Assembly (NCBI GenBank): GCA_003990765.1 | Contig: RBNJ01000035.1 | Coordinates: forward strand, 1-48,873 | Source of the DNA: Jimgerdemannia flammicorona | Lineage: Eukaryota | Reading direction: 5' to 3' | DNA length: 48,873 bases | Shown here: positions 24,473 to 48,873 of the stretch, in pieces | How positions within the stretch are numbered: the stretch's first letter is position 1 | How the letters are laid out: every line of letters starts with the position of its first letter | Notes under the pieces: generated by a model | What the model was told of the DNA's origin: nothing | The model's input: the letters and a program-made list of their open reading frames with translations, nothing else | Databases searched by the model: none | Made by a program: the position numbers and the translations under genes

Positions 24473-25393
24473 GTCAGAGATTTTCTAAGATCAGATCATA
24501 ATCTCCTAGTAGTGTGATCTCAAAGTCTATTTATTCCCAATATTTCTGAATCTTGATAGGTAGTTTGGCTACAATTGACTCAATAAAATATAGTATGCCA
24601 TCTATAGTAACTATATTATAATTCTTGAATATAGGCTTAATAAGAATCTTGAGGTTTTTGATAAAGTTCTGGTTAATGAAGTTTTCTGTAGCTCTACTGT
24701 CTATAAGTACTTGAACTTCTTTTCCTTTAACTAGTCCTTTGAAAATAAGTATAGCTTGAGCTTGATTTTTGATAAGACTTGCTACTTAATCAATATTATC
24801 AAAATCTTTCTAGTCTTACTTAGTTTCAGATAGCTCTTAAACTTCTGGATCTTGGGTTAACTGGCTTTTTCTAAGATCATTTGTATGACTTAGTCTCCTT
24901 CCTTAACTATATAGTCTTGATTCTTCTAGTTGACAAGTAAGACTTGAACTTATCCTTGATAGTCTGAGTTAATGATATTAGTGCTAATGTAACATTTTAG
25001 CATAGTTTATTCCTTTTCTTTGTCTTTCTCCAATATTCTACAACCTTCTGGTATTTTCTGAATGCTTAGAAATCCTTTCTTAGTGCCGAGCATTAACTAG
25101 TACTTATTTAGTTAGTCACTGAATGTCCTGGAAACTTGTAGAACGTTATTTGTCATCATTTGTCATCTTTGCTGAGAACTTTCCTCTTGGCATTTTCCTT
25201 TGATTTCTCAGATCCTTCCAGATCCTTCTTTCAGATCTTGTATAAATAACCCCTTTGTTCTCATGAATAAAGTCTCAGAATATTTTTCTCCCAGAAATCC
25301 TTCGAGAACACTTGAATCCTTAGTATCTCTTCGAGCTACTTAGGACTACCAGAATTAGTCGCTTCCTTATTTAGAAACTAGAACCATTACACT

Positions 25394-25406
25394 TGGTAGC
25401 AGCGGT
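25394..25406 (+). other. Primer-binding site complementary to the 3' end of initiator tRNA-Met
   Basis: TGGTAGCAGCGGT, 2 nt after the LTR end. TGGTAGC is the complement of the ...GCUACCA end of eukaryotic tRNA-iMet. Confidence 0.75.
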
Positions 25407-25459
25407 GAAGTTACACCTAGCCTTATTAAGACACCTCTCAAGATATCAGTCACAGTACT

Positions 25460-28400: not shown

Positions 28401-30305
28401 AACTCAAGAACCGCCTGACCCATGCACCTGTCCTTAGAAACATGGACCCAAACTTGAAGTTCACGGTCACTACAGATACATCTAACTTTGCCATTGGTGC
28501 AGTCATTTCTCAAGATGATGGTCAAGGACACTGACCTATTGCCTTTGAGTCAAGAAAATTGTCCCCAGCAGAACAAAAGCTGGCTACTCATGAAAAGGAA
28601 CTCCTGGCAATCATACATGCCCTCAAGACCTGGCGATACTATCTAGAAGGAGTTGAGTTCGACATGATCACCGATCACAGATCCCTTCAGTATATCAATA
28701 CTCAACCAACCCTTTCTTGCCAACAAGCCAAGTGGAGTCAACTGCTTCAGACCTTTACCCCAAACATCATCTACAAGCCTGGCAAAACTCTAGTTATACC
28801 AGACGCACTTTCAAGGAGACCTGACCTTGCCACGATTTTACAAGTCACCATGGCACCTGAATTCCTCAACCAGATCAAGAAGGCATACGAACAAGACTCT
28901 CTGGTTCTACAAAGGAACACCAAGGAATTCAAGGAAAAGTACACCATTAAGGACAACCTTGTGTACTATCAAGACAAAGTATATATTCCTGCCAACCCTG
29001 AACTATGGTACAAGATTCTCCATGAACACCATGACTCCCTACTAGCTGGCCACCTTGGAACTGAGAAGACCATCAAGAATATCCAACAAGACTACTACTG
29101 GCCAAACATGCTCAAGGAAATCAAGGAGTATGTCCAAAGCTGTGATCTTTACCAAAGAATACAAGTCAAGCAACCAAGCACCTGCTGGTCTTCTACAACC
29201 CTTGTCAATTCTGACCAAGAAGTTCGAACAAGTCACAATGGACTTCATTGTGCAACTCCCACGAATCAAAACAGGCTATGATGCTATTGTTGTGTTTGTG
29301 GACCGTCTCACCAAGATTACATTTGCCAAGCCAACCACAACCAATGCCACTGCCCCAGAAATTGCAAGAATCTTCTTCAAGACTGTCTTCTGCCATTATG
29401 GACTTCCCTGAGTAATTATCAGTGACCGCGACCCCAAATTCACAAGTCACTTCTGGCAAGCACTCTTCAAGACCCTTGGAACCCAAATTGCTATGTCTAC
29501 AGCTTTCCATCCTCAAACTGATGGACAGACAGAGCGAATGAACAGAACACTTGAACAAATGCTCAGAAACTATGTATCCTATGAGCAAGATAATTGGGAC
29601 CACTATCTGACTTACACCGAGTTCACCTACAACAATGCCAACTAATTATCAACGGGTCTTTCCCCATTTCAGCTACTTCACAGTCAAAACCCCGAGACCC
29701 CTGCAAGTCTAGTCCAATTCCAGCAATCCAGTCACACACAAGTCCCCACAGCCCAGAACCTTATCGACAAAATGGATTCCCTTCTCAAGATCACCACTAC
29801 GAACCTGAAAAAGGCTCAGCAACATCAAGCTAAGTATGCAGATAAGAAGCGGCGAGATGTCATATACAACATTGGCAATATGGTTCTACTCAAAGCCGAC
29901 AACATCAAGGCTCAATCTCAAGTCAACTGCCAGTCAGCCAAATTCCAGCCCAAGTACCTTGGACCCTTCGAGATCACCGAGCAAGTCTCTACCTGGTCTT
30001 ACCATCTCAACTTGCCGACAACCATGCATATACACCCAGTATTCCATGTGTCACAACTCAAGACCTGGAACCAGTCACCCCCATACCCTGGCCAAATTCC
30101 AATGCCATCAGCACCAGTCATAGTTGAAGACCACATCGAGTATGAAGTCAAGAAAATCTTAGACAAACGAGTCTGATACCGTCGCACAGAATACCTAGTC
30201 AAGTGGATGGGCTACCCTGAATATGACGCCACCTGGGAATCTGCTGCCAACCTCAAGAACTCCCAAGACCTCATCCAAGAGTTCGAGCAAAAAGGAACTC
30301 ATTGA
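25460..30305 (+). pseudogene. Single gag-dUTPase-protease-RT-RNaseH-integrase-chromodomain polyprotein, inactivated
   Basis: Gag LLRGNAAIWW, PAPMDLD and CFFC...H....C knuckle; dUTPase motifs; LIDSGA protease; [10 protein letters not shown] and YIDD RT; TDTS and HEKELLAI RNase H; HHDS..AGHLG and MDFI..VDRLT integrase; GPF; EYEVKKILD..YLVKW.GY...DATWE chromodomain. In-frame stops at 25475, 26018, 26099, 26510, 26828, 26933, 27404, 28532, 29409, 29643 and 30174, plus one frameshift near 29160. Confidence 0.93.
26490..26910 (+). pseudogene. dUTPase domain within the retrotransposon polyprotein
   Basis: All five trimeric dUTPase motifs in order: GLDLQA, ARIALRSGL, GAGVIDPEFRGE, GDRIAQLI, RDQKGFGST. 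Confidence 0.93.
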
Positions 30306-31874
30306 CTGCCCATGAGGTTCTCCCCTTGGATAGTAGATGACCTACTGTGCTGATCAGGTACATTACACATTGGGGCTCTCTAAGAGATACAGCATCAGAA
30401 GCAAGAGATATAGGAGAACCCTATAAATCCTGCAACCAACGAGGTTCAAACCAGTTCTCATTTGATCAAGATGATACTTTGGCCCTTGCCTTATACAAGG
30501 ATGGCCAATCCTTGCCAATGAGTCAGTATATTTAATTTGAAGTTTCTTTTAGTCTTATTGTTTATTATGTATAACTTTGAGAATTCAACGAGGACGTTGA
30601 TTCTTAAGGAGGGGGAGATGTAACATTTTAGCATAGTTTATTCCTTTTCTTTGTCTTTCTCCAATATTCTACAACCTTCTGGTATTTTCCGAATGCTTAG
30701 AAATTCTTTCTTGGCACCGAGCATTAACTAGTACTTATTTAGTTAGTCACTGAATGTCCTGGAAACTTGTAGAACGTTATTTGTCATCATTTGTCATCTT
30801 TGCCAAGAACTTTCCTCTTGACATTTTCCTTTGATTTCTCAGATCCTTCCGGATCCTTCTTTCAGATCTTGTATAAATAACCCCTTTGTTCTCATGAATA
30901 AAGTCTCAGAATATTTTTCTCCCAGAAATCCTTCGAGAATACTTGAATCCTTAGTATCTCTTCGAGTTACTTAGGACTACCAGAATTAGTCGCTTCCTCA
31001 TTTAGAAACTAGAACCGTTACAGCTAATATCTAAATAATATTTGATACTAAGTTCTAATTATAGTACAATTCTGATATAATATCCTTCAGGATATTGGAC
31101 TGCAATTCCAGTAGGTACCAGAGTTCAGCCTTTGGCTGAAATAGTGACTTACTTAACAGAGTATAGGTCAAGATCAATGACTTCTTCTAATTGATATTAT
31201 AGAATCTGGATCTTCAGATGAAGCTTCTTGATCTTGAGTTTAGATTGACTGATAGTGGAATTGATAGAGGTATCTTTGGATAATATAGTGACTAGTCTTG
31301 AGAGTTCACTGGTTTTTTTAAAATATTTGGTTGCAATGTATCTTATTTAGTAACAGAAGAAATTAGCTTTAAATTTCTTTAGATAATTTTTTTCTTCTGG
31401 AGTAAGCTTAGTATTCTTCTTATTTATAGTATCTAGATTTATTAGTACTGGGCCAACTACTTTGGATTGGTTCTTGTGATAGTTCTTGAAGTAATATTTC
31501 TTGTAGTATTCTAGTTTAAAGTAGTTATCAAAGATAATAACATCAAATCTATCAGCAATTCTTATAGTTTTATAGAGGGTCTGTAGCTCTTCTAGCTCAA
31601 TCTTAACTCATATGTTTTCTTTCAGATCTCAGATATAGTAGTCTATCTTTTCATCTTTAGATATTGTTAATAGTTTAAGTAGAATTGATAGAAATTATAT
31701 ATTATAACTTTATATAGACTTAAGTTACTTAAAATTTACTAGCTTGTCTCAGACTAGCTTAGTAGAATTAGTAGACTTAAACTACTAGTAAAGGGCCTTC
31801 TTAAAGGATTTCTAATCTTGGATTCTTGTATTTGAATAGATAGTAGTGATTATAATATAATTATACTACTAAAT

Positions 31875-32276
31875 TGTAACATTTTAGTATAGTTTATTCC
31901 TTTTCTTTGTCTTTCTTCAATATTCTATAACCTTCTGATACTTTCTGAATACTTAGAAATCCTTTCTTGGTACCGAGCATTAACTAGTACTTATTTAGTT
32001 AGTCACTGAATGTTCTGGAAACTTGTAGAACTTTATTTGTCATTATTTGTCATCTTTGCTGAGACTTTCCTCTTGGCATTTTCCTTTGATTTCTCAGATC
32101 CTTCCAGATCCTTCTTTCAGATCTTGTATAAATATCCCCTTTGTTCTTATAAATAAAGTCTCAGAATATTTTCTCTCAGAAATCCTTCAAGAATACTTGA
32201 ATTCTTAGTATCTCTTCGAGCTACTTAGGACTACCAGAATTAGTCACTTCCTTATTTAGAAACTAGAACCATTACA
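31875..32276 (+). mobile_element. Solo LTR of the element B family inserted in gag of element A
   Basis: Matches the 24988-25391 LTR end to end (TGTAAC..TTACA), with perfect TSD TAAAT (31870-31874, 32277-32281). Confidence 0.95.
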
Positions 32277-33134
32277 TAAATGGTCATATTTCCTCAAAGA
32301 AGTATGGCAGCAAATTGAACTTGTATATCTTCTTTCACTCTTATAAGTTTGAAGTATTGGTCTAACTGGAAGGTCCATGCATCTGTGGTTAGTCCTCCTC
32401 AGTGACTATCAAAGATATCTGACTTGAGTGGCTTGAAGCTAATCAGTATAGTGGTAGGATATAATATAGTTATAGTTCTTGTTTTCTGATATTCTAGTTG
32501 TACTTAAAGTTGTCAAATTTGATGGGCTATAGTGGTAATCATATTCTCTAGATTGACTTGTAATTTCATATTGTCTGCTTCTTCTATAACAGAGGAGTCT
32601 AGATAGTAGGCTGATCTTTCATAGCTCATTTGGACTTATATGACTAGTTGTGACTAGTTTCTGAATTCATATAAGGTTTCTTAATAAGGCAATATATAAT
32701 AATACTACTACTACTAAATATAATAGTTCTAGTTTCTTTAAGAAGAAGTAGCTAAAACTAGTAATTCTGATGGACGTAAAGTAGCTTAAAGAGATACTTA
32801 TAGGTTCAAGTATTTAAAGAAATTCTAAGAGAAAATATTCTGAACTTTATTTAAGTAGAGAATAATGATATTTATATAAGATCTGAAAGAAAGATCTAGA
32901 AGGATCTCAGAAAAGAAGAAAAAAGCCAAAAAATAGATTCTTGATAAAGATGACTAATAGAATTCTACAATGTTTCAAAAGGTTCTATAACTAGCTAAGA
33001 TAAGAGACTTAGTGCTGAAAAAAGACAAGAATATTCTAGTAATGTCTTGGTATCAAGAGAAGGTTTCTAGATATTTGGAAGCTGCTGGAACATAGTAGAA
33101 TATTTAAGAAAAGATAAGAAAAGACTAGAGAAAA

Positions 33135-33591
33135 GACATAAGACTAAGATATGACTGTAAAATTATTATAGCTTATCTATAATTTTCTCCTTATAGTCTA
33201 GTTTGGTAATCTTGGTACTGATAAAAACTCCTTTTTCTATAGATCTGAATCCTTTCCTTTCTCTCTCTATTTTTTTTAGTTTTTTTACTTCTATGATCTT
33301 AAGTTATAGTATTAGAAAGATAAGTATTTATATTATTCAGTACTTCTTAACTATAAACAGAATTATAGAGTTATGGTTTCTAGTAATGAGCAGAATTTTT
33401 TCAATATAATCAGAATTAATTACTTCTCTTTTAATAGAAATTTCACTTTTGACTAAACTACTTCTTATCTTGAGTATTCTAATATAGTTCTTGAAAATAG
33501 TCATCTCTAGATTAGTTGTAAGTAGAATAATTATCTGGGGTTCAAGAACTATTTCTTCAATAATAGTGATATTTATTTCAGCATCTTTCTC
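33135..33591 (+). repeat. Left copy of the 457-bp direct duplication flanking the PLE array
   Basis: Matches 47261-47717 with about 5 differences counted by eye, all transitions. Ends directly at the T19 tract 33592-33610. Confidence 0.95.
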
Positions 33592-36500
33592 TTTTTTTTT
33601 TTTTTTTTTTATTATAAAATGAGTAGATAATAGAGGAATAGTTTAGAGCGAGATGTGATACTGTTATAGCGGATATGAAGGTCGGTGGTAAGAGGTCAAA
33701 ACAGAGAAAGCAGTAAACATATGTGAATTTTCACGACGGAACAAAAACAAGCGGAATAAAGTGTTTTCTAAAGTAAGGTGCAATAGATCTGCAACCTGCC
33801 TATGGCACCGCAATCTGTGATGGTCTTTATTCAAAATTGAGAACAAAGTTCAGATAAACAAAGACACAGATCTAACCCTGGAATTCCGGAATTGGACAGG
33901 TGCATAAGTACCTGAGCCTTGCCCTGAACCAAACAAAGGTCTGAATCGGGCATCATCGATCTATACACATGACGGGCCATTAAAAACCCGATATAGTAAC
34001 AATCGGGAAAAGATACCGGTCATGTGATCTAATGTTACACAAACAATAAACAATGCTAAAAACGGAACTAGACCAATGACGTGTCACATGTCATCATGTG
34101 ATTGTCACTTATAGGTTTAAAAACCTAAAAATCATCAGCACCTGAAGGCATAGGCATCAGGCCTAGAGCCTCGTGACCGGAGCAGAGTAGAGCCTCGGTA
34201 CCAGAGCAAGTGAAGTGAGCAGAGGTAGCCAGGCATCATGGAGCATAGGTACACAGGCGTCAGGCCTAAAGCCTTGCACCGGAGGTTGTCCAGCGATTTT
34301 TCGCGTTTTTAAATATCGCACGGCATGTACGAGTGGTGCGGCCTTCAAGGAGGACTTAGAGTGAAGCTGGTGTTTGAGATGGCATTAAGAATGGTAAAAC
34401 CATTCTTCTGGGCGATAATTGGTCGTCGGGCAGTTGCAGAGAAACCAAAACGAAGCAAAGCGGTACATAGAGTCTTGTCGGGCTATTGATGTAGCCATCG
34501 GGCCATGTCGTATTGGACGACAAGCAATGGGGGAGGAAAAGCGGAGTGGGGGATAGGGGGGTGGGAAATAAGGGGAGGGGTGAGAAGTGAAGTTCGGACC
34601 TTAAGCCAATCAACCAAACTCAATTGAGCAGTTACAACATCAACAGGGTATCCTTTCCTGTGAACCAGGAATTCGGCCAAAGACCGACACTCATCAAGCC
34701 AATCATGGTGAGATGAGCAGAGTAGCAAAAGGCAGCAGGCCTTGTTCACAATGCATAGACGGAGTGTCTTCCTAGGATGATTGCTCAACCAGTCAACAAA
34801 CTGAGTACTACGCAGGAATTTGGCAAAGCGGCCTGTGTGGAATAGTGCAACTCGGATTTCCAGGTCTAAGTAATGGCATGGTCCGGCGGACAAGACTTCC
34901 CATTCGATACGATGGTGTGGCGGGTACATGACAGCAAAAATCGAGGCCAAGTCCATAATCGCGAGCGTAAAGACAATAAGATCGTCAATATACTGGTGGA
35001 ACTTTAGCCCGGCAGTGATGGCTTGGCTGAGCAGATGATTGGGCGCTTGCAAGATGCGCAACTCATGAGCAAAACCAACAAGATTGGCAAGATCTGGAGC
35101 ACAATTAGTGCCCATAGCAATACCAGTCACAGAGTGGAAGGAACCGATGGCGGATGTAAACATCATACGAGTCATGACTATGCGGACAAGGCCGAGAATG
35201 GCTTCAAGCAGCAATAAGCCAGGGGGGAAGGCCACTGTCGACAAAAAGGTGAGGCAGTCAATGCACTCATCTAATGTGATCCTGGTGTAGAAGGCGGCAA
35301 AATCTCCAGTAGCGATGTAGAAGCAATCTGACATGTCAAGGTAATCTGATCGAACCAACTGAAGCAGTTCTAACATATCATGTAGAGGTGAATAACGGGA
35401 ATAACCCACATTATGATGCAGATGGGCCGACTACAGGTGGAGAAAGTAAGATAGGAAACACAAAATCTCGGTTGTGGGAGAGTTAAATGCACCAACAATA
35501 GGACGCCATGCCACGCGAGCCCCTTTGTGTACCTTGGGCAAAGCGTGAAACACAGGTAGCTTATAATCGTTAGGCTCCATGAGGTGTTTCCAAATCGGCA
35601 TACAATTATGATCGCCGATACAGAACTTGAGTAGACCAAGCAGGTCTAGCCTCACTGATTTCTTAACATTATCAATTGTAGAGGGATCATTCACATATGC
35701 AGGATTGTGAAGGAGGGACCAAAGACCATCAAGATATAGAGCACGTGGTATAACAGTGAACCCCAGATTCTTGTCGGTAAGATAGACAGTAAAGTCATTA
35801 TGAGTATGGATGTCTTTAAGAAGGCGGTGGAACTTTTTCGGTACAAGTGCGCCGGATACATTCGTCATGGGTCAGACAGCTTGATTCAAAGCGGCACTCA
35901 TATAGAGCATAATTTGCATATTTTTCATACAGTGTGGCAGTTGCCATTTGGATGGCACCCAGGCAGAGATCTCTGGGACGTCATCAGGATTACCCATAGA
36001 TGTCCAGAAGGTGGCAAGGTCGAGATGCCATTGGAACGACGACAACGAAATCGGGTCGATGGTGCTGTTCATTGATGCCGACCCAGGGAGAATGAACTTA
36101 GAGCCAAAGTTCAGCATATACGTGAGCTCGGGGGTAAGCCAAAGCAGAGGTATATCAGTAACAAAGCCCTCCTTGGTAAACATCTGAAACCGAGAGACGA
36201 AAAACTGACTTAAGCGGGAACCGGGAAGAGAAGACATGAAGGCAAAATCCTCAATAGGTGTTAAGGCTGCTACCCCACGTGGAATGGGGACATCAGGGCC
36301 AAACCACGCTGCCAGAAAGTCATATAAGACTTCTGGGCTGGGGACCTCTAGTTTTTTGACACTAGAGGGCAGGCATCGCCGGCATTATGCCAGACGATAT
36401 GATGCTTGGCGGCAGTACACTTGTTGCACTGCGGCACAAACGCCCTGGTAGTACTCTTAGATGAGCGGCTCAAAGTCAATGAGCGGCTAGTCCTGGTAGA

Positions 36501-38191
36501 AGCAGAAGAAACGGACGGGGAAGGTGAAGCCTTACACGCTCACTTGACCCCTTTTACAGAACCCTCTGTCATAGCAGGGGCTAGGGGGCAAGGACCTCAG
36601 TGGGCCTTTGTAGGCACACCAAGGTATCCAGAACAGCTACGGCAGTTCGGCGCAACAGAGGCCGAGGTCACCTTCACCTCCTTCACCTTTCTCGCAGCCC
36701 CCGCAGGCATGGCAGTGGAGGGTAGGGGGGTGGGGACACTCTTTTTCGGTCGGGCAGAACCAGTAGCAGCAGAAGCAAATGTGTGTTTGGCACCCGGAGT
36801 AACAATCTTGGGGCGCTTCCCAAGCTCCTCGACCATGGCTTTGTGGACAGTGGTGGAAATCCCATCTTGCAGAGAGGAGGACACAGGGACTGTCAGGCGG
36901 ACGGCGGTGGCAGCAGCTTTAGCAGTGGTGGCAGCAGCAAGACAGCGAGACTGACGCATGACAACATCAAAACCACAGAACAGAAACAAGTTTGTCTTGG
37001 CCCGGTCAGTGGCAGCAAGGGTAGCGATATTTTTGCTAACCCCTTGAGTGATATCGACGGATACACCAAAAAATTAGTGGGCATCGGAAGAACCACCCAT
37101 GGCCTTGTCAATTTTAGCATGCTGGTCCTTAGCATACTGGGTGGCGGCATCTTGATCAGAGACAGTAGCCTCGATCGCGGCAGTGGCACAGCGCTTAGCT
37201 TCTGCCGAAGCAGTAGTAAGAGTGGCATCACGCTGCTCCTCAGGTAGGAGGGCGATGGCAGCAGCTACTTTCTTGGAAGGAATAAACCTCCAATCAGCAA
37301 CCTGGGCCCATAAGAACTCGGCATGGTGTTCTCTCGTGGCGGCAAGCTCAAGGGCGGAAAGCACTCCGGTGCAAGCAGCCTGGAAATAAGCAGAGACCTT
37401 GGCAGACGCGGCAGCAATATAGGCTGCAAGGTTGTTGAACTCCGCCAAATTGGCGAAGGAAGCTTTGGAGACGGTAGCATCGCCATCTACATTTATGTTA
37501 TCTGTCATGTTGTATATTATAAAACGAGTAGATAATAGAGGAATAGTTTAGAGCGAGATGTGATACTGTTACGGCAGATATGAAGGTTGGTGGTAAGAGA
37601 TCAAAACAGAGAAAGCGATAAATATATGTGAATTTTCATGACGGAACAAAAACAAGCAGAATAAAGTGTTTTCCGAAGCAAGGTACAATAGATCTACAAC
37701 CTGCCCATGGCACCGCAATCTGCGATGATCTTTATTCAAAATTGAGAATAAAGTTCGGATAAACAAAGACATGGATCAAACCCTGGAATTCTGGAATCGG
37801 ACAGGTGCATAAGTACCTGAGCCTTGCCCCGAACCAAACAAAGGTCTGAATCGGGTGTCGTCGATCTATACATGTGACAGGCCATTAAAAACCCGATATA
37901 GTAACAATTGGAAAAAGGTACCGGTCACGTGATCTAATGTTACACAAACAATAAAAAATGCTAAAAACAGAACTAGACCAATGATGTGTCACGTGTCATC
38001 ACGTGATTGTCACTTATAGGTTTAAAAACGTGAAAAATTGTCAGCACCCGAAGGCACAGGCGTCAGGCCTAGAGCCTCATGACCGGAGTAGAGTAGAGCC
38101 TTGGCACCGGAGCGAGCGAAGCGAGCGGAGGTAGCCAGGTGTCACGGAGTGTAGGTATGCAGGCATCAGGCCTAGAGCCTCACACCGGAGG
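33592..38191 (-). mobile_element. Endonuclease-less Penelope-like element, copy L1
   Basis: Terminal repeat - ORF1 (37508-36348) - RT ORF (36357-34345) - 3'UTR - terminal repeat - poly(A) (33592-33610). RT motifs LNFGSKF, TDKNLG, LPKVHK, WRPIVG, GDFAAFYT, GIAMGTNCAPDLANL, YIDD, YLDL, SNHP, GYP. Several premature stops. Confidence 0.92.
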
Positions 38192-41100
38192 TTTTTTTTT
38201 TTTTTTTTTTTTTTTTTTATTATAAAACGAGTAGATAATAGAGGAATAGTTTAGAGTGAGATGTGATACTGTTACGGCAGATATGAAGGTCAGTGGTAAG
38301 AGGTCAAAACAGAGAAAGCGGTAAACATATGTGAATTTTCACCATGGGAACAAAAACAAGTAGAATAAAGTGTTTTCTAAAGCAAGATGCAATAGATCTG
38401 CAACCCGCCCACGGCACCGCAATCTGCAATGGTCTTTATTCAAAATTGAGAACAAAGTTTGGATAAACAAAGACACAGATCTAACCCTGGAATTCCGGAA
38501 TCGGACAGGTGCATAAGTACCTGAGCCTTGCCCTGAACCAAACAAAGGTCTGAATCGGGCGTCATTGATCTACACATGTGATGGGCCATTAAAAACCCGA
38601 TATAGTAACAATTGGGAAAAGGTACCGGTCACGTGATCTAATGTTATACAAACAATAAACAATACTAAAAACGGAACTAGACCAATGACGTATCATGTGT
38701 CATCACGTGATTATCACTTATAGATTTAAAAACCTAAAAATCGTCGGCACCTGAAGGCGCAGGCATCAGGCCTAGAGCCTTGCAACTGGAGCAGAGTAGA
38801 GCCTCGGCACTGGAGCGAGCGAAGTGAGCGGAGGTAGCCAGGCGTCATGGAGTATAGGTACACAGGTATCAGGCCTAGAGCCTCGTGCTGGAGGTTGTCC
38901 GGCGATTTTATGTGTTTTTAAACATCGCATGGCACGTACGAGCGGTGTGGCCTTCAAGGAGGACTTAGAGCAAAGCTGGTGTTTGAGACGGCATTAAGAA
39001 TGGTAAAACCGTTCTTCCGGGCGATGATTGGTCATCAGGCAGTCGCAGGGAAACCAAAACGAAGTAAAGTGGTATGTAGAGTCTTGTCAGGCTGTTGATG
39101 TAGCCATCAGGCCATATTGTATTGGACAACAAGCAATGGGGGAGGAAAAGCGGAGTGGGGGATAGGGGGGTGGGAAATAAGGAGAGGAGTGAGAAGTAAA
39201 GTTCAGACCTCAAGCCAATCAACCAAACTCAATTGAGCAGTTACAACATCAACAGGGTATCCTTTCCTGTGAACCAGGAATTCGGCCAAAGACCAACACT
39301 CATCAAGCCAATCACAGTGAGATGAGCAGAGTAGCGAAAGGCGGTGGGCCTCATTCACAATGCATAGACGGAGTGTCTTCCTAGGATGATTGCTCAACCA
39401 GTCAACAAACTGAGTACTATGCAGGAATTTGGCAAAGCGGCCTGTGCGGAATGGTGCAACTCAGATTTCCAGGTCTAAGTAATGATATGGTCCAGCAGAC
39501 AAGACTTCCCATTCGATATGATGGTGCGGTGGGTACATGGCAGCAAAAATCGAGGCCAAGTCCATAATCGTGGGCGTAAAGACAATAAGATCATCAATAT
39601 ACTGGCAGAACTTTAGCCTGGCAGCAATGGCTCGGCTGAGCAGATGATTGGGTGCTTGCAAGGCATGCAACTCATGAGCAAAACCAACAAGATTGGCAAG
39701 ATCCGGAGCACAATTAGTGCCCATAGCAATACCAGTCACAGAGTGGAAGGAACTGATGGCAGATATAAACGTTATATGAGTCATGACTATGCAGACAAGG
39801 CCGAGAATGGCTTCAAGCAGCAATGAGCCAGGGGGGAAGGCCACTATCAACAAAAAGGTGAGGCAGTTGATGCACTCATCTAATGTGATCCTAGTGTAGA
39901 AGGTGGCGAAATCTCCAGCAGTGATGTAGAAGCAATCTGACATGTCAAGGTAATCTGATCGAACCAACTGAAGCAGTTCTAACATATCACGTAGAGGTGA
40001 ATAACGGAAATAACCCACATTATGGTGCAGATGGGCTGACCATAGGCAGAGAAAGCGAGATAGGAAACGCGAAATCTCGGTCGTGGGAGAGTTAAACACA
40101 CCAACGATAGGGCACCATGCCATGCAAGCCCCTTTGTGTACCTTGGGCAAAGCATGAAACACAGATAGCTTACAATCATTAGGCTCCATGAGGTGTTCCC
40201 AAATCGGTATACAATTATGATCGCCGATGCAGAACTCGAGTAGACCAAGCAGGTCTAGCCTCACTGATTCCTTAATGTTATCAATTATAGAGGGATCATT
40301 CACGTATGCAGGATCGTGAAGGAGGGACCGAAGACCATCAAGATATAGAGCACGCAGTATAACGGCGAACCCCAGATTCTTGTCGATAAGACAGACAGTA
40401 AAGTCATCATGAGTATGGATGCCTTTAAGAAGGTGGCAGAACTTCTTCAGTACAAGCACGCTGGATACATTCGTCATGGGTCAGACAGCTTGATTTAAAG
40501 CGGCACTCATATGGAGCATAATTTGCATATTTTCCATACAGTGCGGCAGTCGCCATTTGGATGGCACCCAGGCAGAGATCTCTGGGACGTTGTCAGGATT
40601 ACCCATAGAGGTCCAGAAGGTGGCAAGGTCGAGACGCTGTTGGAACGACGATAATGAAATCGGGTCGATGGTGCTGTTCATCGATGCCGACCCAGGGAGA
40701 ATGAACTTAGGGCCAAAGTTCAGCATATACGTGAGCTCGGGGATAAGCCAAGGCAGAGGTATATCAGTAACAAAGCCCTCCTTGGTAAACATCCGAAACC
40801 AAGAGATGAAAAACTGACTTAAGCGGGAACCGGGAAGAGAAGACAAGAAGGCAAAATCCTCAATAGGTGTCGAGGCCGCTACTCCACGTGGAATGGGGAC
40901 ATCAGGGCCAAATCACGCTACCGGGAAGTCGTATAAGACTTCCAGGCTGGGGACCTCTAGTTTTTTGATGCTAGAGGGCAGGCATCGCCGGCATTATGTC
41001 AGACGATATGATGCTTGGCGGCAGTACACTTGTTGCACTGCAGCACAAACGCCCTGGCGGCACTCTTAGATGAGTGGCTCGAAGTCGATGAGCAGCTGGT

Positions 41101-42828
41101 CCCAGTAGAAGCAGAAGAAACGGATGGGAAAGGCAAAGCCTTATGCGCTCGCTTGACCCCTTTTACAGAACCCTCTATCATAGCAGGGGTTAGGGGGCAA
41201 GGACCTCGGTGGGCCTTCGTAGGCACACCAAGGTGTCCAGAACAGCTATGGCAGTTTGGCGTAACAGAGGCCGAGGTCACCTTCACCTCCTTCACCTTTT
41301 CCACAGCCCCCGCAGGCGTGGCGGTGGAGGGTAGGGGGGTGGGGACACTCTTTTTCGGTTGGGCAGAACTAGCGGCAGTAGAAGCAAACGTGCATTTGGC
41401 ACCTAGAGTAACAATCTCGGGGCGCTTCCCAAGCTCCTCGACCACGGCTTTGCAGGTGGCAGCGGAAATCCCATCTTGCAAAGAGGAGGACACAGGGACT
41501 GTCAGGTGGACAGCAGCAGCAGCGGCTTTAGCAGTGGCAGTAGCAGTAAGATGGCAAGACTGATGTACGATAATGTCAAAACCATGGAACAGAAACAAGT
41601 TTGTCTTGGCCTGGTCAGTGGCAGTGAGGGTAGCGATATTCTTGCTAACCCCTTGAGTGATATCGATGGATACACCAAAAAATTGGTGGGCATCAGAAGA
41701 ACCACCCATGGCCTTGTCGATTTTAGCATGCTGGTCCTTAGCATGCTGGGTGGTGGTATCTTGATCAGAGATGGCAGGCTCGATCGCGGCAGTAGTACAG
41801 CACTTAGCTTCTGCCGAAGCAGTAGTAAGGGTGGCATCATGCTGCTCCTCTGGTAGGAGGATGATGGCAGCAGCTACTTTCTTAGAAGGAATAAACCTCC
41901 AATCAGCAACCTGGGCCTGTAAGAACTTGGCACGGCATTCTCTCGCGGTGGCAAGCTCAAGGGCGGAAAGCACTCCAGTGCAAGCAGCCTGGAAATAAGC
42001 AGGGACCTCGGCAGACGCGGCAGCAACATAGGCTGCAAGGTTGTCGAACTCTGCCAAATCAGTGAAAGAAGCTTTGGGGATGGCAGCATCGCCATCTATA
42101 TTCATGTTATCTGTTATGTTGTATATTATAAAATAAGTAGATAATAGAGGAATAGTTTAGAGCAAGATGTGATACTGTTACAGTGGATATGAAGGTCGGC
42201 GGTAAGAGGTCAAAACAGAGAAAGCGGTAAACATATGTGAATTTTCATGACAGAATAAAAACAAGCGGAATAAAGTGTTTTCTAAAGCAAGGTACAATAG
42301 ATCTGCAACCCACCCATGGCACTGCAATCTGCAATGGTCTTTATTCAAAATTGAGAACAAAGTTCGGATAAACAAAGACATGGATCTAACCCCGGAATTC
42401 CAGAATCGGACAGGTGCATAAGTACCCGAGTCTTGCCCTGAACCAAACAAAGGTCTGAATCGGGCGTTGTCAATCTACACATGTGACAGATCATTAAAAA
42501 CCTGATATAGTAACAATTGGGAAAAGGTACTGGTCACGTGCTCTAATGTTACACAAACAATAAACAATACTAAAAACGGAACTAGACCAATGATGTGTTA
42601 CGTGTCATCACGTGATTGTCACTTATAGGTTTAAAAACCTAAAAATCATCGGCACCCGAAGGTGCAGGTGTCAGGCCTAGAGCCTCATGACTGGAGCAGA
42701 GTAGAGCCTCGGCACCAGAGCGAGTGAAGCGAGCGGAGGTAGCCAGGCATCATGGAGTGTAGGTATGCAGGCGTCAGGCCTAGAGCCTCGCACCAGAGGT
42801 TGTTCAGTGATTTTTCGCATTTTTAAAC
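38192..42828 (-). mobile_element. Endonuclease-less Penelope-like element, copy L2
   Basis: Same layout as L1: ORF1 42117-40957, RT ORF 40966-38954, poly(A) 38192-38218 joined directly to the 5' end of L1 (head-to-tail). Confidence 0.92.
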
Positions 42829-43338
42829 CTATAAGTAACAATCATGTGATGACATGTGACACGTCATTGGTCTAGTTCCGTTTTTAGCATTGTTTATTGT
42901 TTGTGTAACATTAGATCACGTGACCGGTACCTTTTCCCAATTGTTACTATATCGGGTTTTTAATGGCCCATCACGTGTGTAGATTGACAACACCCAATTC
43001 AGACCTTTGTTTGGTTCGGGCAAGGCTCGGGTACTTATGCACCTGTCCGATTCCAGAATTCCGGGGTTAGATCCATGTCTTTGTTTATCCGAACTTTGTT
43101 CTCAATTTTGAATAAAGACCATCGCAGATTGCGGTGCCATGGGCGGGTTGCAGATCTATTGCACCTTGCTTTGGAAAACACTTTATTTCGCTTGTTTTTA
43201 TTCCATCATGAAAATTCACATACATTTATCGCTTTCTCTGTTTTGACCTCTTACCGCCGACCTTCATATCCGCTGTAACAGTATCACATCTTACTCTAAA
43301 CTATTCCTCTATTATCTACTCGTTTTATAATACACAAT

Positions 43339-44499
43339 ATGACAGATAACATGAATGTAGATGGCGATGCTGCCATCCCCAAAGCTTCCTTCGCCAATTT
43401 GGCGGAGTTCGACAACCTTGCAGCCTATGTTACTGCTGCGTCTGCCAAGGTCCCTGCTTATTTCCAGGCTGTTTACACCAGAGTGCTTTCTGTCCTTGAG
43501 CTCGCCACTATGAGGGAACGCCGTGCCGAGTTCTTATGGGCCCAGGTTGCTGATTGGAGGTTTATTCCTTCCAAGAAAGTAGCTGCTGCCATTGCTCTCC
43601 TACCTGAGGAGCAGCATGATGCTGCCCTTACTACTGCTTCGGCAGAAGCTAAGCGCCGTGCTACTGCCATGATCAAGGCTGCCATCTCTGATCAAGATGC
43701 TGCTGCCCAGCATGCTAAGGACCAGCGTGCTAAAATCGACAAGGCCATGGGTGGTTCTTCCGATGCCCACCAATTTTTTGGTGTATCTGTCGATATCACT
43801 CAAGGGGTTAGCAAGAATATCGCTACCCTTGCTGCCACCGACCAGGTCAAGACAAACTTGTTTCTGTTCCATGGTTTTGATATTTTCGTGCGTCAGTCTC
43901 GCCATCTTACCACTGCCACCGCTGCTAAAGCCGCTGCTGCCACCATCCGCCCGACAGTCCCTGTGTCCTCCTCTCTGCAAAATGGAATTTCCGCCGCCGC
44001 CTGCAAAGCCATGGTCGAGGAGCTTGGGAAGTGCCCCGAGATTGTTACTCCGGGTGCCAAACGCACATTTGCTTCTACTGCCGCTGGTTCTGCCTGACCG
44101 AAAAAGAGTGTCTCCACCCCCCTACCCTCTATTGCCATGCCTGCGGGGGCTGCGGGAAAGGTGAAGGAGGTGAAGGTAACCTCGGCCTCTATTGCACCGA
44201 ACTGCCATAGCTGTTCTGGACACCTTGGTGTGCCTACAAAGGCCTATCGAGGTCCTTGCCCCCTAGCCCCTGCTATGATAGAGAGTTCTGTAAAAGGGGT
44301 TAAGCGAGTGTGTAAGGCTTTACCTTCTCCATCCATTTCTTCTGCTTCTACCGGGACCAGCCACTCATCGACTTCGAGCCGCTCATCTAAGAGTGCCACC
44401 AGGGCATTTGTGCCACAGTACAACAAGTGTACTGCCACCAAGTGTCATGTCGTCTGGCATAATGCCAGCGATGCCTGCCCTCTAGCGTCAAAAAACTAG
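43339..44499 (+). pseudogene. PLE ORF1 (386 codons): Ala-rich helical/coiled-coil protein with two C-terminal Cys/His clusters
   Basis: Consensus of three copies gives Cx2Cx10Hx3C (CHSCSGHLGVPTKAHRGPC) and Cx2Cx9Hx5C (CNKC...HNAGDAC). This copy has a TGA at 44095, where copy L1 has CGA. Confidence 0.8.
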
Positions 44500-46502
44500 A
44501 GGTCCCCAGCCCAGAAGTCTTATACGACTTCCTGGCAGCGTGGTTTGGCCCTGATGTCCCCATTCCATGTGGGGTAGCAGCCTCAACACCTATTGAGGAT
44601 TTTGCCTTCATGTCTTCTCTTCCCAGTTTCCGCTTAAGTCAGCTTTTTGTCCCTTGGTTTCGGATGTTTACCGAGGAGGGCTTTGTTACTGATATACCTC
44701 TGCCTTGGCTTACCCCTGAGCTCACGTATATGCTGAACTTTGGCCCTAAGTTCGTTCTCCCTGGGTTGGCATCGATGAATAGCACTATCGACCTGATTTC
44801 ATTGTCGTCGTTCCAATGGTGTCTCGACCTTGCTACCTTCTGAACCTCTATGAGTAATTCTGACGACGTCCCGGAGATCTCTGCCTGGGTGCCATCCAAA
44901 TGGCGACCGCCACACTGTATGGAAAATATGCAAATTATGCTTCATATGAGTGCCACTTTGAATCAAGCTGTCCGACCCATGACGAATGTGTCCGGCGTGC
45001 TTGTACCGAAGAAGTTCTACCACCTTCTTAAAGGCGTCCATACTCATGATGACTTTACTATCTATCTTACCGACAAGAATCTGGGGTTTGCCGTTATACT
45101 ACATGCTCTATATCTTGACGGTCTTCGGTCCCTCCTTCACGATCCTGCATACGTGAATGATCTCTCTATGATTGATAATGTTAAGGAATCAGTGAGGCTA
45201 GACCTGCTTGGTCTACTCGAGTTCTGCATTGGTGATTATAATTATATGCTGATTTGGGAATATCTCATGGAGCCTAATGATTGTAAGCTACCTGTGTTTC
45301 ATGCTTTGCCCAAGGTACACAAAGGGGCTCGCGTGGCATGGTGCCCTATCGTTGGTACATTTAACTCTCCTACGACCGAGATTTTGCGTTTCCTATCTTG
45401 CTTTCTCCGCCTGTAGTCGGCTCATCTGTGCTATAATGTGGGTTATTCCTGTTATTCACCTCTACGTGATACATTAGAACTGCTTCAGTTGGTTCGATTG
45501 GATTACCTTGATGTGTCAGATTGCTTCTACGTCGCTACTGGAGATTTCGCTGCCTTCTACACCAGGATCACATTAGATGAGTGCATCGACTGCCTCACCT
45601 TTTTGTTGACGGTGGCCTTCCCCCCTGGCTCGTTGCCGCTTAAAGCCGTTCTCGGCCTTGTCTGCATAGTCATGACTTGTACGATATTTACATCCGCCAT
45701 CAGTTCCTTCCGCTCTGTGACTGGTATTGCTATGGGCACTATTTGTGCTCCGGATCTTGCCAATCTTGTTGGTTTTGCTCATGAGTTGCATGCCTTGCAA
45801 GCGCCCGATCATCTGCTCAGCTGAGCCATCACTGCCGAGCTAAAGTTCTGCTGGTATATTGATGATCTTATTATCTTTACACCTGTGATTATGGACTTGG
45901 CCTCGATTTTTACTGCCATGTACCTGCCGCACCATCATATCGAATGGGAAGTCTTGTCCACCAGACTGTGCCATTACTTAGACCTGGAAATCCAAGTTGC
46001 ACCATTCTGCACAGGCTGCTTTGCCAAATTCCTGTGTAGTACTCAGTTTGTTGACTGGTTGAGCAATCATCCTAGGAAGACACTCCATCTATGCATTGTG
46101 AACGAGGCCCGCCACCTTTTGCTACTCTGCTCATCTTGTCATGATTGGCTTGATGAGTGTCGGTCTTTGGCTGAATTCCTGGTTCACAGGAAAGGATACC
46201 CTGTTGATGTTGTAACTGCTCAATTGAGTTTGGTTGATTGGCTTGAGGTCCGAACTTTACTTCTCACCCCTCCCCTTATTTCCCACCCCCCTATTCCCCA
46301 CTCTGCTTTTCCTCCCCCATTGTTTGTCATCCAATATGATATGGCCCGATGGCTACATCAACAGCCCGACAAGACTCTATGTACCGCTTTGCTTCATTTT
46401 AGTTTCCCTGCAACTGCCTGATTACCAATCATTGCCCGGAAGAATGGTTTTACCATTCTTAATGCCGTCTCAAACACCAGCTTTGCTCTAAGTCCTTCTT
46501 GA
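44490..46502 (+). pseudogene. PLE reverse transcriptase ORF, no GIY-YIG endonuclease
   Basis: PLE-type RT motifs as in L1. The frame ends about 100 codons after GYP (..NTSFALSPS-stop) with no GIY-YIG signature at either end. Confidence 0.88.
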
Positions 46503-47260
46503 AGGCCGCACTGCTTATACATGCCATGCAATGTTTAAAAATGCGAAAAATCGCCAGACAACCTCTGGTGCAAGGCTCTAGGCCTGATGCCTGCGTACCT
46601 ATGCTCCATGATGCCTGGCTACCTCCGCTCGCTTTGCTCGCTCTGGTGCCAAGGCTCTACTCCGCTCCGGTCGCGAGGCTCTAGGCCTGACACCTGCGCC
46701 TTCGGGTGCCGACGATTTTTAGGTTTTTAAACCTATAAGTAACAATCACGTGATGACGCATGACACGTCATTGGTCTAGTTCCGTTTTTAGCATTGTTTA
46801 TTATTTGTATGACATTAGATCACGTGACTGGTACTTTTCCCAATTGTTACTATATCAGGTTTTTAATGGCCTGTCACATGTGTAGATTGACGACGCCCGA
46901 TTCAGACCTTTGTTTGGTTTGGGGCAAGGCTCGGGTACTTATGCACCTGTCCGATTCCGGAATTCCGGGATTAGATCTGTGTCTTTGTTTATCCGAACTT
47001 TGTTCTCAATTTTGAATAAAGACCATCACAGATTGCGGTGCCATGGGCAGGTTGCAGATCTATTACACCTTGCTTCGGAAAACACTTTATTCTGCTTGTT
47101 TTTATTCCGTCGTGAAAATTCACATATGTTTACTGCTTTCTCTGTTTTGACCTCTTACCACCAACCTTCATATCCGCCGTAACAGTATCACATCTCGCTC
47201 TAAACTATTCCTCTATTATCTACTTGTTTTATAATATAAAAAAAATAAAAAAAAAAAAAA

Positions 47261-47717
47261 GACATAAGACTAAGATATGACTGTAAAATTATTATAGCTT
47301 ATCTATAATTTTCTCCTTATAGTCTAGTTTGGTAATCTTGGTACTGATAAAAACTCCTTTTTCTATAGATCTGAATCCTTTCCTTTCTCTCTCTATTTTT
47401 TTTAGCTTTTTTACTTCTATGATCTTAAGTTATAGTATTAGAAAGATAAGTATTTATATTATTCAGTACTTCTTAACTATAAATAGAATTATAGAGTTAT
47501 GGTTTCTAGTAATGAGCAGAATTTTTTCAATATAATCAGAATTAATTACTTCTCTTTTAATAGAAATTTCACTTTTGACTAAACTACTTCTTGTCTTGAG
47601 TATTCTAATATAGTTCTTGAAAATAGTCATCTCTAGATTAGTTGTAAGTAGAATAATTATCTGGAGTTCAAGAACTATTTCTTCAATAATAGTGATATTT
47701 ATTTCAGTATCTTTCTC
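47261..47717 (+). repeat. Right copy of the 457-bp direct duplication flanking the PLE array
   Basis: Begins immediately after poly(A) 47238-47260 and includes the last 36 nt of the element A 5' LTR plus its GCTTA TSD. Confidence 0.95.
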
Positions 47718-47759
47718 TAGTAACATTCAGATTATACAACCTTTTGATAATACTCACAA

Positions 47760-48873
47760 TACTGTTTTTGGAGAAAAGCAACTAATAACATAGTGATCAA
47801 TGTGTATTCTGAGGTGCATACTGGGCAGGGTGGCTCTAGTACATTTGACTGGCAGTATGTAGGAAGGGGCCCTAACTTGGGGGAAAACATGAGAGATCTG
47901 CTGATAGGAGGACATAGATGGAGAGAGAGTAGGATTGGAGGGCAGGGAATAGGGAGGGTAAGTTCACAGATATGGTGAAGGGAAGACAGCTGGCATCTAA
48001 GCTGAAGAGCTGATTAAGAAAGGGCAAAGAGACAGTAATGATAGTAGAATATAAGAGAGCAGCTCTTAGCAGTAGGGGTAGTAGAGCTGGGTGTAGTGAC
48101 TGGGGAGAGTGTGACAGCTGATGGCAACAGAACTATCAATCTGGAAAAAAATCCAAATATAACTGCCGATAGTGGGGCTGAGAGGATGGGGCTTGAATGA
48201 ATGAGAGACCTGATAGATGGCATGATGGGTCTAGTGATGGCACTATTACTCAAGAAGTCAATCTCAGAGTTCATAGTTACTTTGTGCTTCTGGGGCTTAG
48301 CAGTGATAGTAAAAATAGTATTGAGGCTGATTGTTAAGCAGGTAGCTAGAGCAGTATCTGTGAAGTTTCTGAAGGGATTGAAAGGAGTAGAGGTGGGTTT
48401 TGAGGAGGCAGAGCCATTGGAGGAAGCACTGAAGGCTGGACTGACTATTGGAGAGGTATGTATTCCAATAGTATGCTGCTTGAGATGGGACCCCTGGGTG
48501 GTGTAGCTGCTGATGAAAGGGGTGCCCATAGTGACCACTGTAGAGATAAGAAGGAGAGTTGAAGAAGTTATGGCTGAGTATAGAGAGGTGGTTGATGTTG
48601 GTTTCCAGGTCTGAGAGGGGATCTCATTTAGAACTGGAAATATAGATGTTAGAATTCAGTTGACAGAGAAGAAAGCTATCAGAAAGACTAGGAACTGGCC
48701 TTCAGTAATAGTTTGGGGGGCTTTCTTGTATAAGGTAATGAGGGTGAAGAGAAGTAAAGAGAAGGAAGAGGATTTATTAGAGATACTGAAGGAGCTGGAG
48801 GACAAGGGTGACATTGTATTGTATACATTATAGACTTCGGTAATAAAGGGCAGTCCAAGAGACTATAAAAAAA
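47760..48873 (-). mobile_element. Degenerate, CpG-depleted repeat remnant, possibly LINE ORF2 interior
   Basis: Strong strand skew (C-rich minus strand), almost no CpG, and a long stop-poor H/P/S/L/Y-rich frame. No diagnostic motif recognised. Confidence 0.3.

Follow-up and report, generated by a model that had tools for sequence, protein, structure and literature searches.

Two copies of a 457-bp host segment enclose three decayed copies of a Penelope-like element whose tails face outward, at one locus in one assembly. The best reading of this structure, to which we give an even chance, is that reverse transcription was primed from both DNA ends of a single lesion. The window that we analyzed, a stretch of 48,873 nt without any N, is a whole contig. 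Within it, the array runs from the host segment through T19, the antisense copy L1, T27, the antisense copy L2, the sense copy R, and an A-rich tail into the host segment again. The original prediction had drawn this layout together with its coordinates, and self-BLAST and direct reading of the sequence found all parts present.

Self-BLAST aligned the two host copies, 33131-33592 and 47257-47718, with 98.9% identity across 462 nt. A column-by-column comparison of the duplicated core (33135-33591 versus 47261-47717) gave five differences in 457 nt, all five of them transitions. The borders of the duplication are ambiguous, with up to four common A on the left and one common T on the right, and its total length is 457-462 bp. 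Chance would come nowhere near producing a match of 457 nt at 99%. The left copy starts inside the end of an old AT-rich LTR (32697-33175), which matches 20150-20620 at 79.6%. In the alignment, LTR homology fades past approximately 33175, and the final 41 nt of the LTR are the opening 41 nt of the 457-bp segment. Within this contig, the duplicated segment can thus be said to span a unique LTR/flank junction and not to be a dispersed repeat, an explanation that self-BLAST ruled out for this contig only. The insertion site is AT-rich, repeat-derived DNA, and host DNA flanks the array on both sides. To its left this DNA measures 33 kb, and to its right 1.15 kb, where the host copy is followed by 1156 nt of flank up to the contig end. 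The position of the array only 1.15 kb from a contig end, where assemblies are weakest, counts against the explanation that we favor.

At both outer junctions (33591 for the top strand, 47261 for the bottom strand), a host 3' end is followed by a T tail and then by antisense element, and the strand logic of cDNA priming that had been proposed for the locus is borne out. The poly(A) tail of L1 (T19, 33592-33610, minus strand and read as T on the plus strand) abuts position 33591, the 3' end of the host strand. The poly(A) tail of L2 (T27, 38192-38218, likewise minus strand and T on the plus strand) abuts the 5' end of L1; two T of this run are possibly part of L1. On the plus strand, the A-rich tail of R (47236-47260; 25 nt in the order A, T, A8, T, A14) abuts host DNA at 47261, and its final four A are possibly host sequence. 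The tails are not host-derived, since the right host copy shows a non-T after position 457 and the left copy only four A before position 1. The host 3' ends are T-rich on both sides, with one T that could be shared on the left and up to four on the right. The poly(A) starts at the identical element site in all three copies, and the tail lengths differ (19, 27, and 25 nt), as expected if the RNAs were polyadenylated separately.

L1 (33592-38193) and L2 (38194-42828) lie head to tail on the minus strand, and L2 and R (42808-47260, plus strand) lie head to head. L1 and R both contain many in-frame stops. Self-BLAST gave 90.9% identity between L1 and L2 over 4612 nt and 90.8% between R and L1 over 4455 nt. 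Each copy carries terminal direct repeats, or pseudo-LTRs, of about 700 nt (679-706 nt per copy); in L1, sequence comparison placed them at 33611-34313 (3') and 37515-38193 (5', minus strand in both cases). The copies differ at their 5' ends: that of L1 is the pseudo-LTR start, that of L2 extends 27 nt past it, with sequence found elsewhere just before the 3' pseudo-LTR, and R has lost roughly 150 nt from the beginning of its 5' pseudo-LTR. All three copies share one set of variants peculiar to the 5' pseudo-LTR and another peculiar to the 3' pseudo-LTR, which indicates that every copy was made from a whole RNA spanning both pseudo-LTRs. Classic LINE-1 twin priming copies one RNA from two primers and yields an inverted 5' part and a single poly(A). 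Here there are three RNAs and two outward tails. We rejected twin priming on one RNA because of the two tails; together with the overlap of the inverted copies over their full length, they require at least two RNAs.

ORF2 of L1 (34483-36420, minus strand, translated with X at three internal stops) encodes a reverse transcriptase (RT) with the motifs DKN, LPKVHK, GIAMGTNCAP, and YIDD plus a thumb region. DKN, RT 1-7, and thumb are given as typical Penelope-like features in the available part of PMC13159263, and by its predicted DKN motif and thumb the element is of the Penelope-like RT type. In a 10-sequence alignment, D216, K217, and N218 are at least 90% conserved, and the K..HK, RPI, G.AMG, and DD columns are invariant. 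Pfam RVT_1 matched the RT weakly (E 0.001), and a PDB profile search returned bacterial and group II RTs alone, with a best E of 1.1e-5 and no telomerase. Protein matches bear PF26215 (HTH_animal) and PF28514 (DUF8422) as precomputed families. The nearest Atlas clusters were most often from Rotifera, with the Gigaspora relative P0003 rather than the window's own protein as the query. A protein search with shorter fragments gave one distant match (33% identity) and did not reveal a close copy. The host is an early-diverging, Endogonales-type fungus; for a gene next to the array, the closest protein with a species name comes from Jimgerdemannia flammicorona and is 99% identical. In L2, ORF1 (40999-42156, minus strand) spans 385 codons between two stops, and it had no Pfam family match; in every copy, ORF2 is read in the -1 frame with respect to ORF1.

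A Pfam search of the three sense frames of L1 and R at E <=0.05 detected no endonuclease and matched RVT_1 alone, in agreement with the proposal that the element is endonuclease-less. Nine aligned relatives likewise stop after the thumb region. For these insertions, an endonuclease may have been supplied in trans. Tails and a flanking duplication are present as in LINE-type target-primed insertion at a T-rich nick, which also involves an AP-type or REL-type endonuclease; here no endonuclease domain was found, and the RT is Penelope-like.

For the ends of related elements, and for these only, we used 80 distant loci (20-31% identity) from a metagenome scan queried with the alignment; the scan with a single protein had given no relative. 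Seven of the 80 carry (CCCTAA)n of at least three units on the sense strand 3' of the RT, which marks this RT group as priming on pre-existing 3' ends. None of the 80 showed a terminal A run attributable to the element, though many of their contigs are cut; the only locus with an A run of at least 12, L079, is uninformative. Telomere-type repeats are absent from the present contig (2 two-mismatch matches versus 3.1 expected). For the hammerhead ribozyme motif that Penelope-like elements carry in the pseudo-LTR, Rfam gave no match in 30000-48873 at E <=1, where a decay of approximately 9% could mask the motif; the sole match in that scan was a snoRNA-like chance hit.

Athena and Coprina elements, including Coprina-1_Alen of Ascochyta lentis, resemble this element in that they have no endonuclease, two ORFs with DKN, RT, and thumb in ORF2, terminal direct repeats, a length of about 4.5 kb, and a 3' end joined to a host DNA end, toward which the ORFs point. 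In these clades a coiled-coil ORF1 precedes ORF2, and a frameshift may link the two. The ORFs of telomeric Coprina copies point to the centromere (PMC13159263, available part), and their polarity relative to the host end is the same as in this array. In contrast, Athena and Coprina sit at chromosome ends and carry reverse-complement telomeric repeats and a hammerhead ribozyme, whereas the element described here ends in poly(A), lies in a contig free of telomeric repeats, gave no Rfam ribozyme match, and has host DNA on both sides. The link to Athena and Coprina that the original prediction had drawn thus does not amount to demonstrated membership: the element agrees with them in the missing endonuclease but not in the 3' repeats, the ribozyme, or a location at a chromosome end. 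The missing ribozyme and 3' repeats also count against the explanation that we favor.

As far as the accessible text of PMC8557442 and PMC3846280 goes, Penelope-like elements canonically insert as a tandem array joined head to head to an inverted copy with a truncated 5' end, and the bidirectional array is not, as had been supposed, special in itself. Penelope, Poseidon, Neptune, Naiad, and Chlamys share with this array direct pseudo-LTRs, head-to-tail repeats, and an inverted 5'-truncated copy. They also share a palindrome or hairpin both where the pseudo-LTR starts (5') and where the inverted copies meet, and their RT likewise has the DKN motif and thumb. These canonical elements encode a GIY-YIG endonuclease, whereas none is detectable in ours. 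They are not known to have a poly(A) tail, whereas poly(A) closes every unit of this array. Endonuclease-bearing Penelope elements are described, in the part of PMC3846280 available, with duplications of 8-10 bp, and canonical insertions contain pseudo-LTR stubs; here the duplication measures 457 bp and whole units are repeated. An overlap of 457 nt between 3' ends lies far above this range and would need an unusual lesion.

At the head-to-head junction of L2 and R, 21 nt (42808-42828) can be assigned to the 5' extension of L2 as well as to the beginning of R. This overlap, a new observation here, corresponds to two sites that are reverse complements within the element, and it fits the annealing of two antisense cDNAs.

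We propose that an endonuclease-less Penelope-like element with poly(A)-tailed RNA entered a pre-existing lesion in AT-rich decayed transposon DNA, at which two host 3'-OH ends (top strand, 33591; bottom strand, 47261) would have overlapped by 457 nt. The terminal T of each host end would pair with the poly(A) of an RNA and thereby prime reverse transcription. On the left side, the L1 RNA would be copied through to its 5' end, and the poly(A) of the L2 RNA would be copied next, either through an end-to-end template jump or because the new end served as a primer once more. On the right side, a third RNA would be copied to yield R. The two antisense cDNAs would anneal where a 21-nt self-complementary site forms the base of the pseudo-LTR hairpin, and each would prime the second strand on the other; fill-in of the overlapping host ends would leave the 457-bp direct duplication. 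Later, C-to-T changes biased toward CpG would have eroded all copies. What the sequence shows directly is the layout, the tails, the junction overlap, the lack of a detectable endonuclease, and the equal divergence of the copies; from these we infer in which order the events occurred, the template jump, the annealing step, and the kind of lesion. The lesion had been predicted to be a break with 457-nt 3' overhangs; from this we retain the two overlapping 3' ends, which would be explained equally well by nicks in staggered positions, by a replication fork, or by breaks in both sister chromatids.

The three copies carry 196, 204, and 211 unique changes, and no pair is closer than the others, as in a star-like relationship. 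Pairwise differences number 408-417, of which 401-407 are transitions, 270-292 of these in CpG context. At strictly non-CpG C/G sites, the element copies differ by 7.0-7.6%, and in the duplicated host segment 5 of 116 such sites differ (Fisher p 0.27-0.34 for the host segment versus the copies), so that one age for copies and duplication appears compatible and is not rejected. The host segment is nominally less changed (4.3% versus about 7%), which counts against the explanation by two-ended priming. The identities (99% versus 91%) might suggest a duplication far more recent than the elements. We set this aside, since the surplus of changes in the elements is tied to CpG, which the host segment lacks. 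Equal divergence could also stem from repeat-directed or methylation-driven mutation after separate insertions.

Separate insertions underlie a stepwise course of events, which we consider unlikely. An inverted pair, or one copy, would have arisen with the long duplication first, and L1 would have entered the T tail of L2 later, primed at a nick in the T homopolymer so that no visible duplication resulted. Indeed, L1 sits exactly between host and T27 with T runs at both of its borders, poly(A)-tailed RNA is expected to pair with T-rich 3' ends, and the 5' ends of L1 and L2 are 27 nt apart. However, a later copy from a functional source should have fewer unique changes than its neighbors, and the numbers are near-equal. 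Furthermore, the L2/R pair and the 457-bp duplication would still require two-ended priming or an equivalent. The successive double extension that had been postulated for the left side agrees with a single age for the copies, whereas a later entry of L1 into the T tail could give the same arrangement.

The L2/R overlap is predicted equally well if the left end alone was primed and the 3' end of the L2 cDNA folded at the hairpin site and copied itself to give R, whose A tail was then caught by the T-rich right end of the bottom strand through microhomology. The earlier claim that two cDNAs were fused accordingly has the overlap in its favor but shares it with this snap-back route, which we regard as rather improbable. 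The long hairpin in question lies at the start of the 3' pseudo-LTR (46533-46737 in R, plus strand, roughly 200 nt); its predicted minimum free energy is -80.5 kcal/mol (z -3.2), with 1 of 200 shuffles equally good, and its base consists of the two sites that meet at the L2/R junction. L2 retains the entire hairpin and R begins exactly at its 3' base, which is how the arm of a fold-back would look. The central bases of the junction agree with the upstream site of L2 and not with its internal site, and the tails of R (25 nt) and L2 (27 nt) are near each other in length. There is also a precedent, as earlier work has invoked self-priming for the palindromes found where Penelope copies meet head to head (PMC3846280, available part). 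On the other hand, such copying should continue through T27 into L1 or inverted host DNA. R actually ends at its tail and the host repeat is direct, so a fortuitous stop at the tail end would be required. The similarity between L2 and R does not exceed that of either copy to L1, which is uninformative if all RNAs were alike.

About as improbable, in our judgment, is an assembly artefact, in which reads of different copies, haplotypes, or individuals were misjoined and no single molecule has the structure. The window being a whole contig with the array 1.15 kb from its end fits this view, Penelope-like tandem and inverted structures are reported to trouble assembly (PMC8557442, available part), and the five differences between the host copies may be allelic. 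Against it, the window has no N, the copies are approximately 9% apart and hence readily distinguished, and the right host copy begins exactly at the tail, within the LTR end, like an insertion junction. A fold-back read, which would yield inverted flank and identical arms, was ruled out by the direct orientation of the host flank and by arms that are 91% alike.

We think it very unlikely that polyadenylated RNAs of a dead Penelope-like element were inserted in trans by a LINE-type endonuclease and RT, as processed retrocopies with a two-ended outcome. Poly(A), T-rich priming sites, the 5' truncation of R, and the flanking duplication are LINE-type hallmarks, relatives of the RT end in telomere-type repeats rather than poly(A), and LINE-1 is able to yield insertions of several RNAs in two orientations. 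However, all three RNAs are of one family and no LINE sequence accompanies them, which speaks for an RNP of the element at work on RNA from the same element, and the combination of head-to-head and tandem copies is a Penelope-like signature. No LINE was seen in the window, where Pfam matched gypsy-type proteins alone besides this element. Least probable is a DNA rearrangement, either a 457-bp tandem duplication with elements arriving at its joint or separate insertions united through end joining: break repair is known to give tandem duplications with DNA inserted at the joint and the site is AT-rich and repeat-derived, but the array would have to strike the joint to the base with both tails outward, and homologous exchange between inverted copies cannot give a direct host repeat.

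The left half-array (host, L1 tail, L1, L2 tail, L2) has the form of the Drosophila HeT-A/TART elements, which make head-to-tail arrays attached by their poly(A) ends to the chromosome end and also heal broken ends. HeT-A and TART belong to the LINE clade and sit at true chromosome ends, whereas here two half-arrays face each other inside a chromosome. LINE-1 experiments described in the part of PMC11702581 available ascribe concatenated copies in the same orientation to template switching and copies joined in opposite orientation to two RT products that annealed; the insertion sites also show small tandem duplications. LINE-1 insertions also include tandem duplications bridged by one insertion via a second 3' overhang on the sister chromatid. 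Two-ended reverse transcription with annealing and RT-bridged duplications are thus already described, so that the patching from two ends in the original prediction has precedents. In contrast to our element, for which no endonuclease is detectable, LINE-1 nicks its target with its own AP-type endonuclease and belongs to another RT clade.

We hold only tentatively the broader conclusion that an endonuclease-less RT patched an interstitial lesion from both 3' ends, and that RT and RNA alone, not GIY-YIG cleavage, make the head-to-head and tandem layout typical of all Penelope-like elements, by jumping end to end between templates and by annealing two antisense cDNAs at the pseudo-LTR hairpin. 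According to the accessible text of PMC8557442, Penelope-like integration is still undefined, and the tandem and inverted layout is tentatively credited to the element's endonuclease. If the locus is real, the canonical layout was produced by an element without an endonuclease. If the conclusion is true, the poly(A) tails mark where synthesis started on each side, so that the direction of priming would be readable for the first time, and the 21-nt overlap at the hairpin would show a possible meeting of the two halves. The layout would then be explained by RT and RNA structure rather than by a nuclease. The locus would be a natural case, outside animals and LINEs, in which reverse transcription bridged a lesion in a chromosome and several hundred base pairs were duplicated, and the endonuclease-less group would extend from priming with telomere repeats to priming with poly(A) on T tracts.

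A repeat scan and self-BLAST of the window detected a direct repeat of host DNA (33131-33592 and 47257-47718, 98.9% identity across 462 nt) that encloses three copies of one Penelope-like retroelement, each 4.5-4.6 kb long. Two copies are antisense, L1 (33592-38193) and L2 (38194-42828), and share 90.9% identity over 4612 nt, whereas the third, R (42808-47260), is sense and shares 90.8% identity with L1 over 4455 nt. This is the arrangement described in the original prediction, whose 457-bp target duplication was also confirmed: the core (33135-33591 on the left, 47261-47717 on the right) differs at five sites, all five of them transitions. Reading the junctions likewise recovered the expected homopolymers, namely a T19 tract at 33592-33610, a T27 tract at 38192-38218 and, at 47236-47260, a 25-nt A-rich tail composed of A, T, A8, T and A14. 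When each was checked against the opposite host copy, neither T19 nor the right A-rich tail proved to be host-encoded; tail and host could have in common just one T at the left border and a maximum of four A at the right. The window contains no N bases.

Of the duplicated segment, the first 41 nt belong to the terminus of an old AT-rich LTR and the other 416 nt are flank. The LTR match (32697-33175 against 20150-20620) amounts to 79.6%, with homology ending near 33175. Since the right host copy starts within this LTR end, immediately after the R tail, the duplicated piece is a copy of that particular LTR/flank junction. For the same reason, membership of the 457-bp piece in a dispersed family was rejected at the scope of the contig. 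The two LTR-like ends may bracket a nest containing a younger gypsy-type LTR retrotransposon (24987-31022; LTRs 24987-25391 and 30618-31022, 96.8% identity), which encodes gag, protease, RT, RNase H, an integrase zinc-binding domain and a Tf2-1-type SH3 domain in several stop-bounded frames. A third copy of its LTR lies at 31875-32276 (93-95% identity). A much older related element in the opposite orientation occupies 18000-24800 at 68-70% identity to the younger copy and with a GC content of 24-29%; it appears to have decayed through heavy C-to-T change. Elsewhere in the window, an exon-like ORF on the minus strand (6880-7923) encodes a metallo-beta-lactamase fold domain, with 99% identity to a Jimgerdemannia flammicorona protein and 63% to an Endogone sp. 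protein.

Each element copy has two reading frames with many stops, ORF2 lying in the -1 frame relative to ORF1, and terminal direct repeats (pseudo-LTRs) of 679-706 nt. With stop codons read as X, the ORF2 search returned 28 proteins at E values up to 0.001, the best at 43% identity; a Gigaspora margarita protein shows 30% identity. Alignment of 10 sequences shows the DKN motif conserved at 90% or more and the K..HK, RPI, G.AMG and DD columns invariant. Penelope-like elements are typified by DKN, RT 1-7 and the thumb, and the Coprina element described in the same paper is 4.5 kb long with two ORFs and terminal direct repeats (PMC13159263). A search of all sense frames of L1 and R gave no match to an endonuclease family, and the aligned relatives stop after the thumb. 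Endonuclease-less, telomere-attaching clades are marked by a 3' (CCCTAA)n-type repeat (PMC8557442). In contrast, all three copies in the window terminate with poly(A) at the same position and the element is flanked by host DNA on both sides; the contig contains no telomere-type repeat, and no ribozyme was found for the element. Given these features, we filed it as a Penelope-like element without detectable endonuclease and did not assign it to Athena or Coprina. Among 80 distant relatives on metagenome contigs, seven carry at least three units of (CCCTAA)n on the sense strand downstream of the RT, and none of the 80, many on cut contigs, finishes with a poly(A) run that can be ascribed to the element. 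These seven loci (L002, L010, L037, L050, L051, L066 and L071; RT identity 21-27%) look like telomere-attached endonuclease-less elements of eukaryotes, and in L002, L010 and L051 the repeat run reaches within about 15 nt of the contig 3' end.

Variants specific to the 5' or to the 3' pseudo-LTR are each common to all three elements (six pseudo-LTR copies). Each element was therefore retrocopied from an RNA in which both pseudo-LTRs were present beforehand; they were not newly built at insertion. The 5' end of L1 lies at the pseudo-LTR start and adjoins the L2 tail, with two bases assignable to either. L2 extends 27 nt further at its 5' end and there takes in sequence found elsewhere ahead of the 3' pseudo-LTR. 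This extension is the reverse complement of a stretch some 150 nt into the pseudo-LTR, the exact point at which R starts, and 21 nt at 42808-42828 therefore match both copies. The two sites close a hairpin of about 200 nt (-80.5 kcal/mol, z -3.2, 1 of 200 shuffles as good). If R synthesis stopped at the hairpin base, the 3' ends of the antisense L2 and R cDNAs would be complementary across the 21-nt overlap. In endonuclease-bearing Penelope elements, palindromes at pseudo-LTR 5' ends and head-to-head junctions have been interpreted as self-priming (PMC3846280). The hairpin-base site (38020-38040 in L1, 42808-42828 at the junction) occurs in two forms, an indel and a transversion apart. One is found in 4 of 6 pseudo-LTR copies. 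The other, of the type exactly complementary to the upstream site, occurs in the L1 5' copy and the L2/R junction. Two source variants, or conversion across the hairpin, may account for this.

The best reading of the array is two-ended target-primed reverse transcription, as originally proposed; strand and junction evidence partly supports and refines that proposal. Two T-rich host ends, the top strand at 33591 and the bottom strand at 47261, would each prime on a poly(A) tail. Synthesis on the left would move from the L1 RNA onto the L2 tail, the two cDNAs would anneal at the hairpin site, and fill-in of 457-nt overlapping host ends would give the duplication. The array has the same polarity as telomeric Coprina copies, whose ORFs face the centromere (PMC13159263). 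The overlap of host 3' ends is the geometry of any target duplication, only longer, and could stem from staggered nicks, a stalled fork or breaks at different points of two sister chromatids, the last being the model for LINE-1-bridged tandem duplications (PMC7058536). Experimental work on LINE-1 describes every ingredient of such a route: same-orientation concatenation by template switching, opposite-orientation joins by annealing of two RT products, and small tandem duplications at insertion sites (PMC11702581).

Pairwise, the three copies differ at 408-417 positions, of which 401-407 (98%) are transitions and 270-292 (about 70%) lie in CpG context. Among non-CpG changes in the copies (33592-47260), CpA is favoured over CpC, and CpC over CpT. 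Such a pattern is indicative of C-to-T mutation, either linked to methylation or directed at repeats, in an early-diverging fungus. The duplicated host segment contains no CpG, and CpG decay accounts for its 99% identity against 91% for the elements; counting only C/G sites strictly outside CpG, divergence is 7.0-7.6% among the elements and 5 of 116 in the host segment (Fisher p 0.27-0.34). A single age for all parts is thus not rejected, which does not prove a single event, because repeat-directed mutation would equalise copies. A stepwise build-up, in which L1 entered the L2 tail later, is possible but not favoured, as the copies are equally diverged (196, 204 and 211 unique changes) and no two of them are closer to each other than to the third.

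Mobilisation of the element's RNAs in trans by a LINE is possible, but leaves the single-family origin of all three RNAs unaccounted for. The L2/R junction would also follow from a snap-back of the L2 cDNA on the hairpin; such an event, however, should have continued into L1 or left the host flank inverted, neither of which is seen. The array may be an assembly artefact: the window is one whole contig, and the array ends 1.15 kb short of the contig end. Against this, the copies differ from one another by 9%, the flanking host DNA is repeated in direct orientation and the junctions resemble insertion junctions. A prior tandem duplication is unlikely, as the array would have had to land exactly on its joint.

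Support for two-ended target-primed reverse transcription comes from a single locus in one assembly. Bidirectional arrays of this kind are canonical for Penelope-like elements (PMC8557442, PMC3846280), and two-ended RT joining is already known for LINE-1 (PMC7058536, PMC11702581). Our literature check was limited, so a similar printed case is possible. Three differences from the printed cases found are noted. Compared with the Penelope-like cases, the same layout comes here from an element without detectable endonuclease; compared with cases of this RT group, poly(A) tails take the place of telomeric repeats; and the duplication spans 457 bp, as opposed to 8-10 bp in endonuclease-bearing Penelope cases (PMC3846280).
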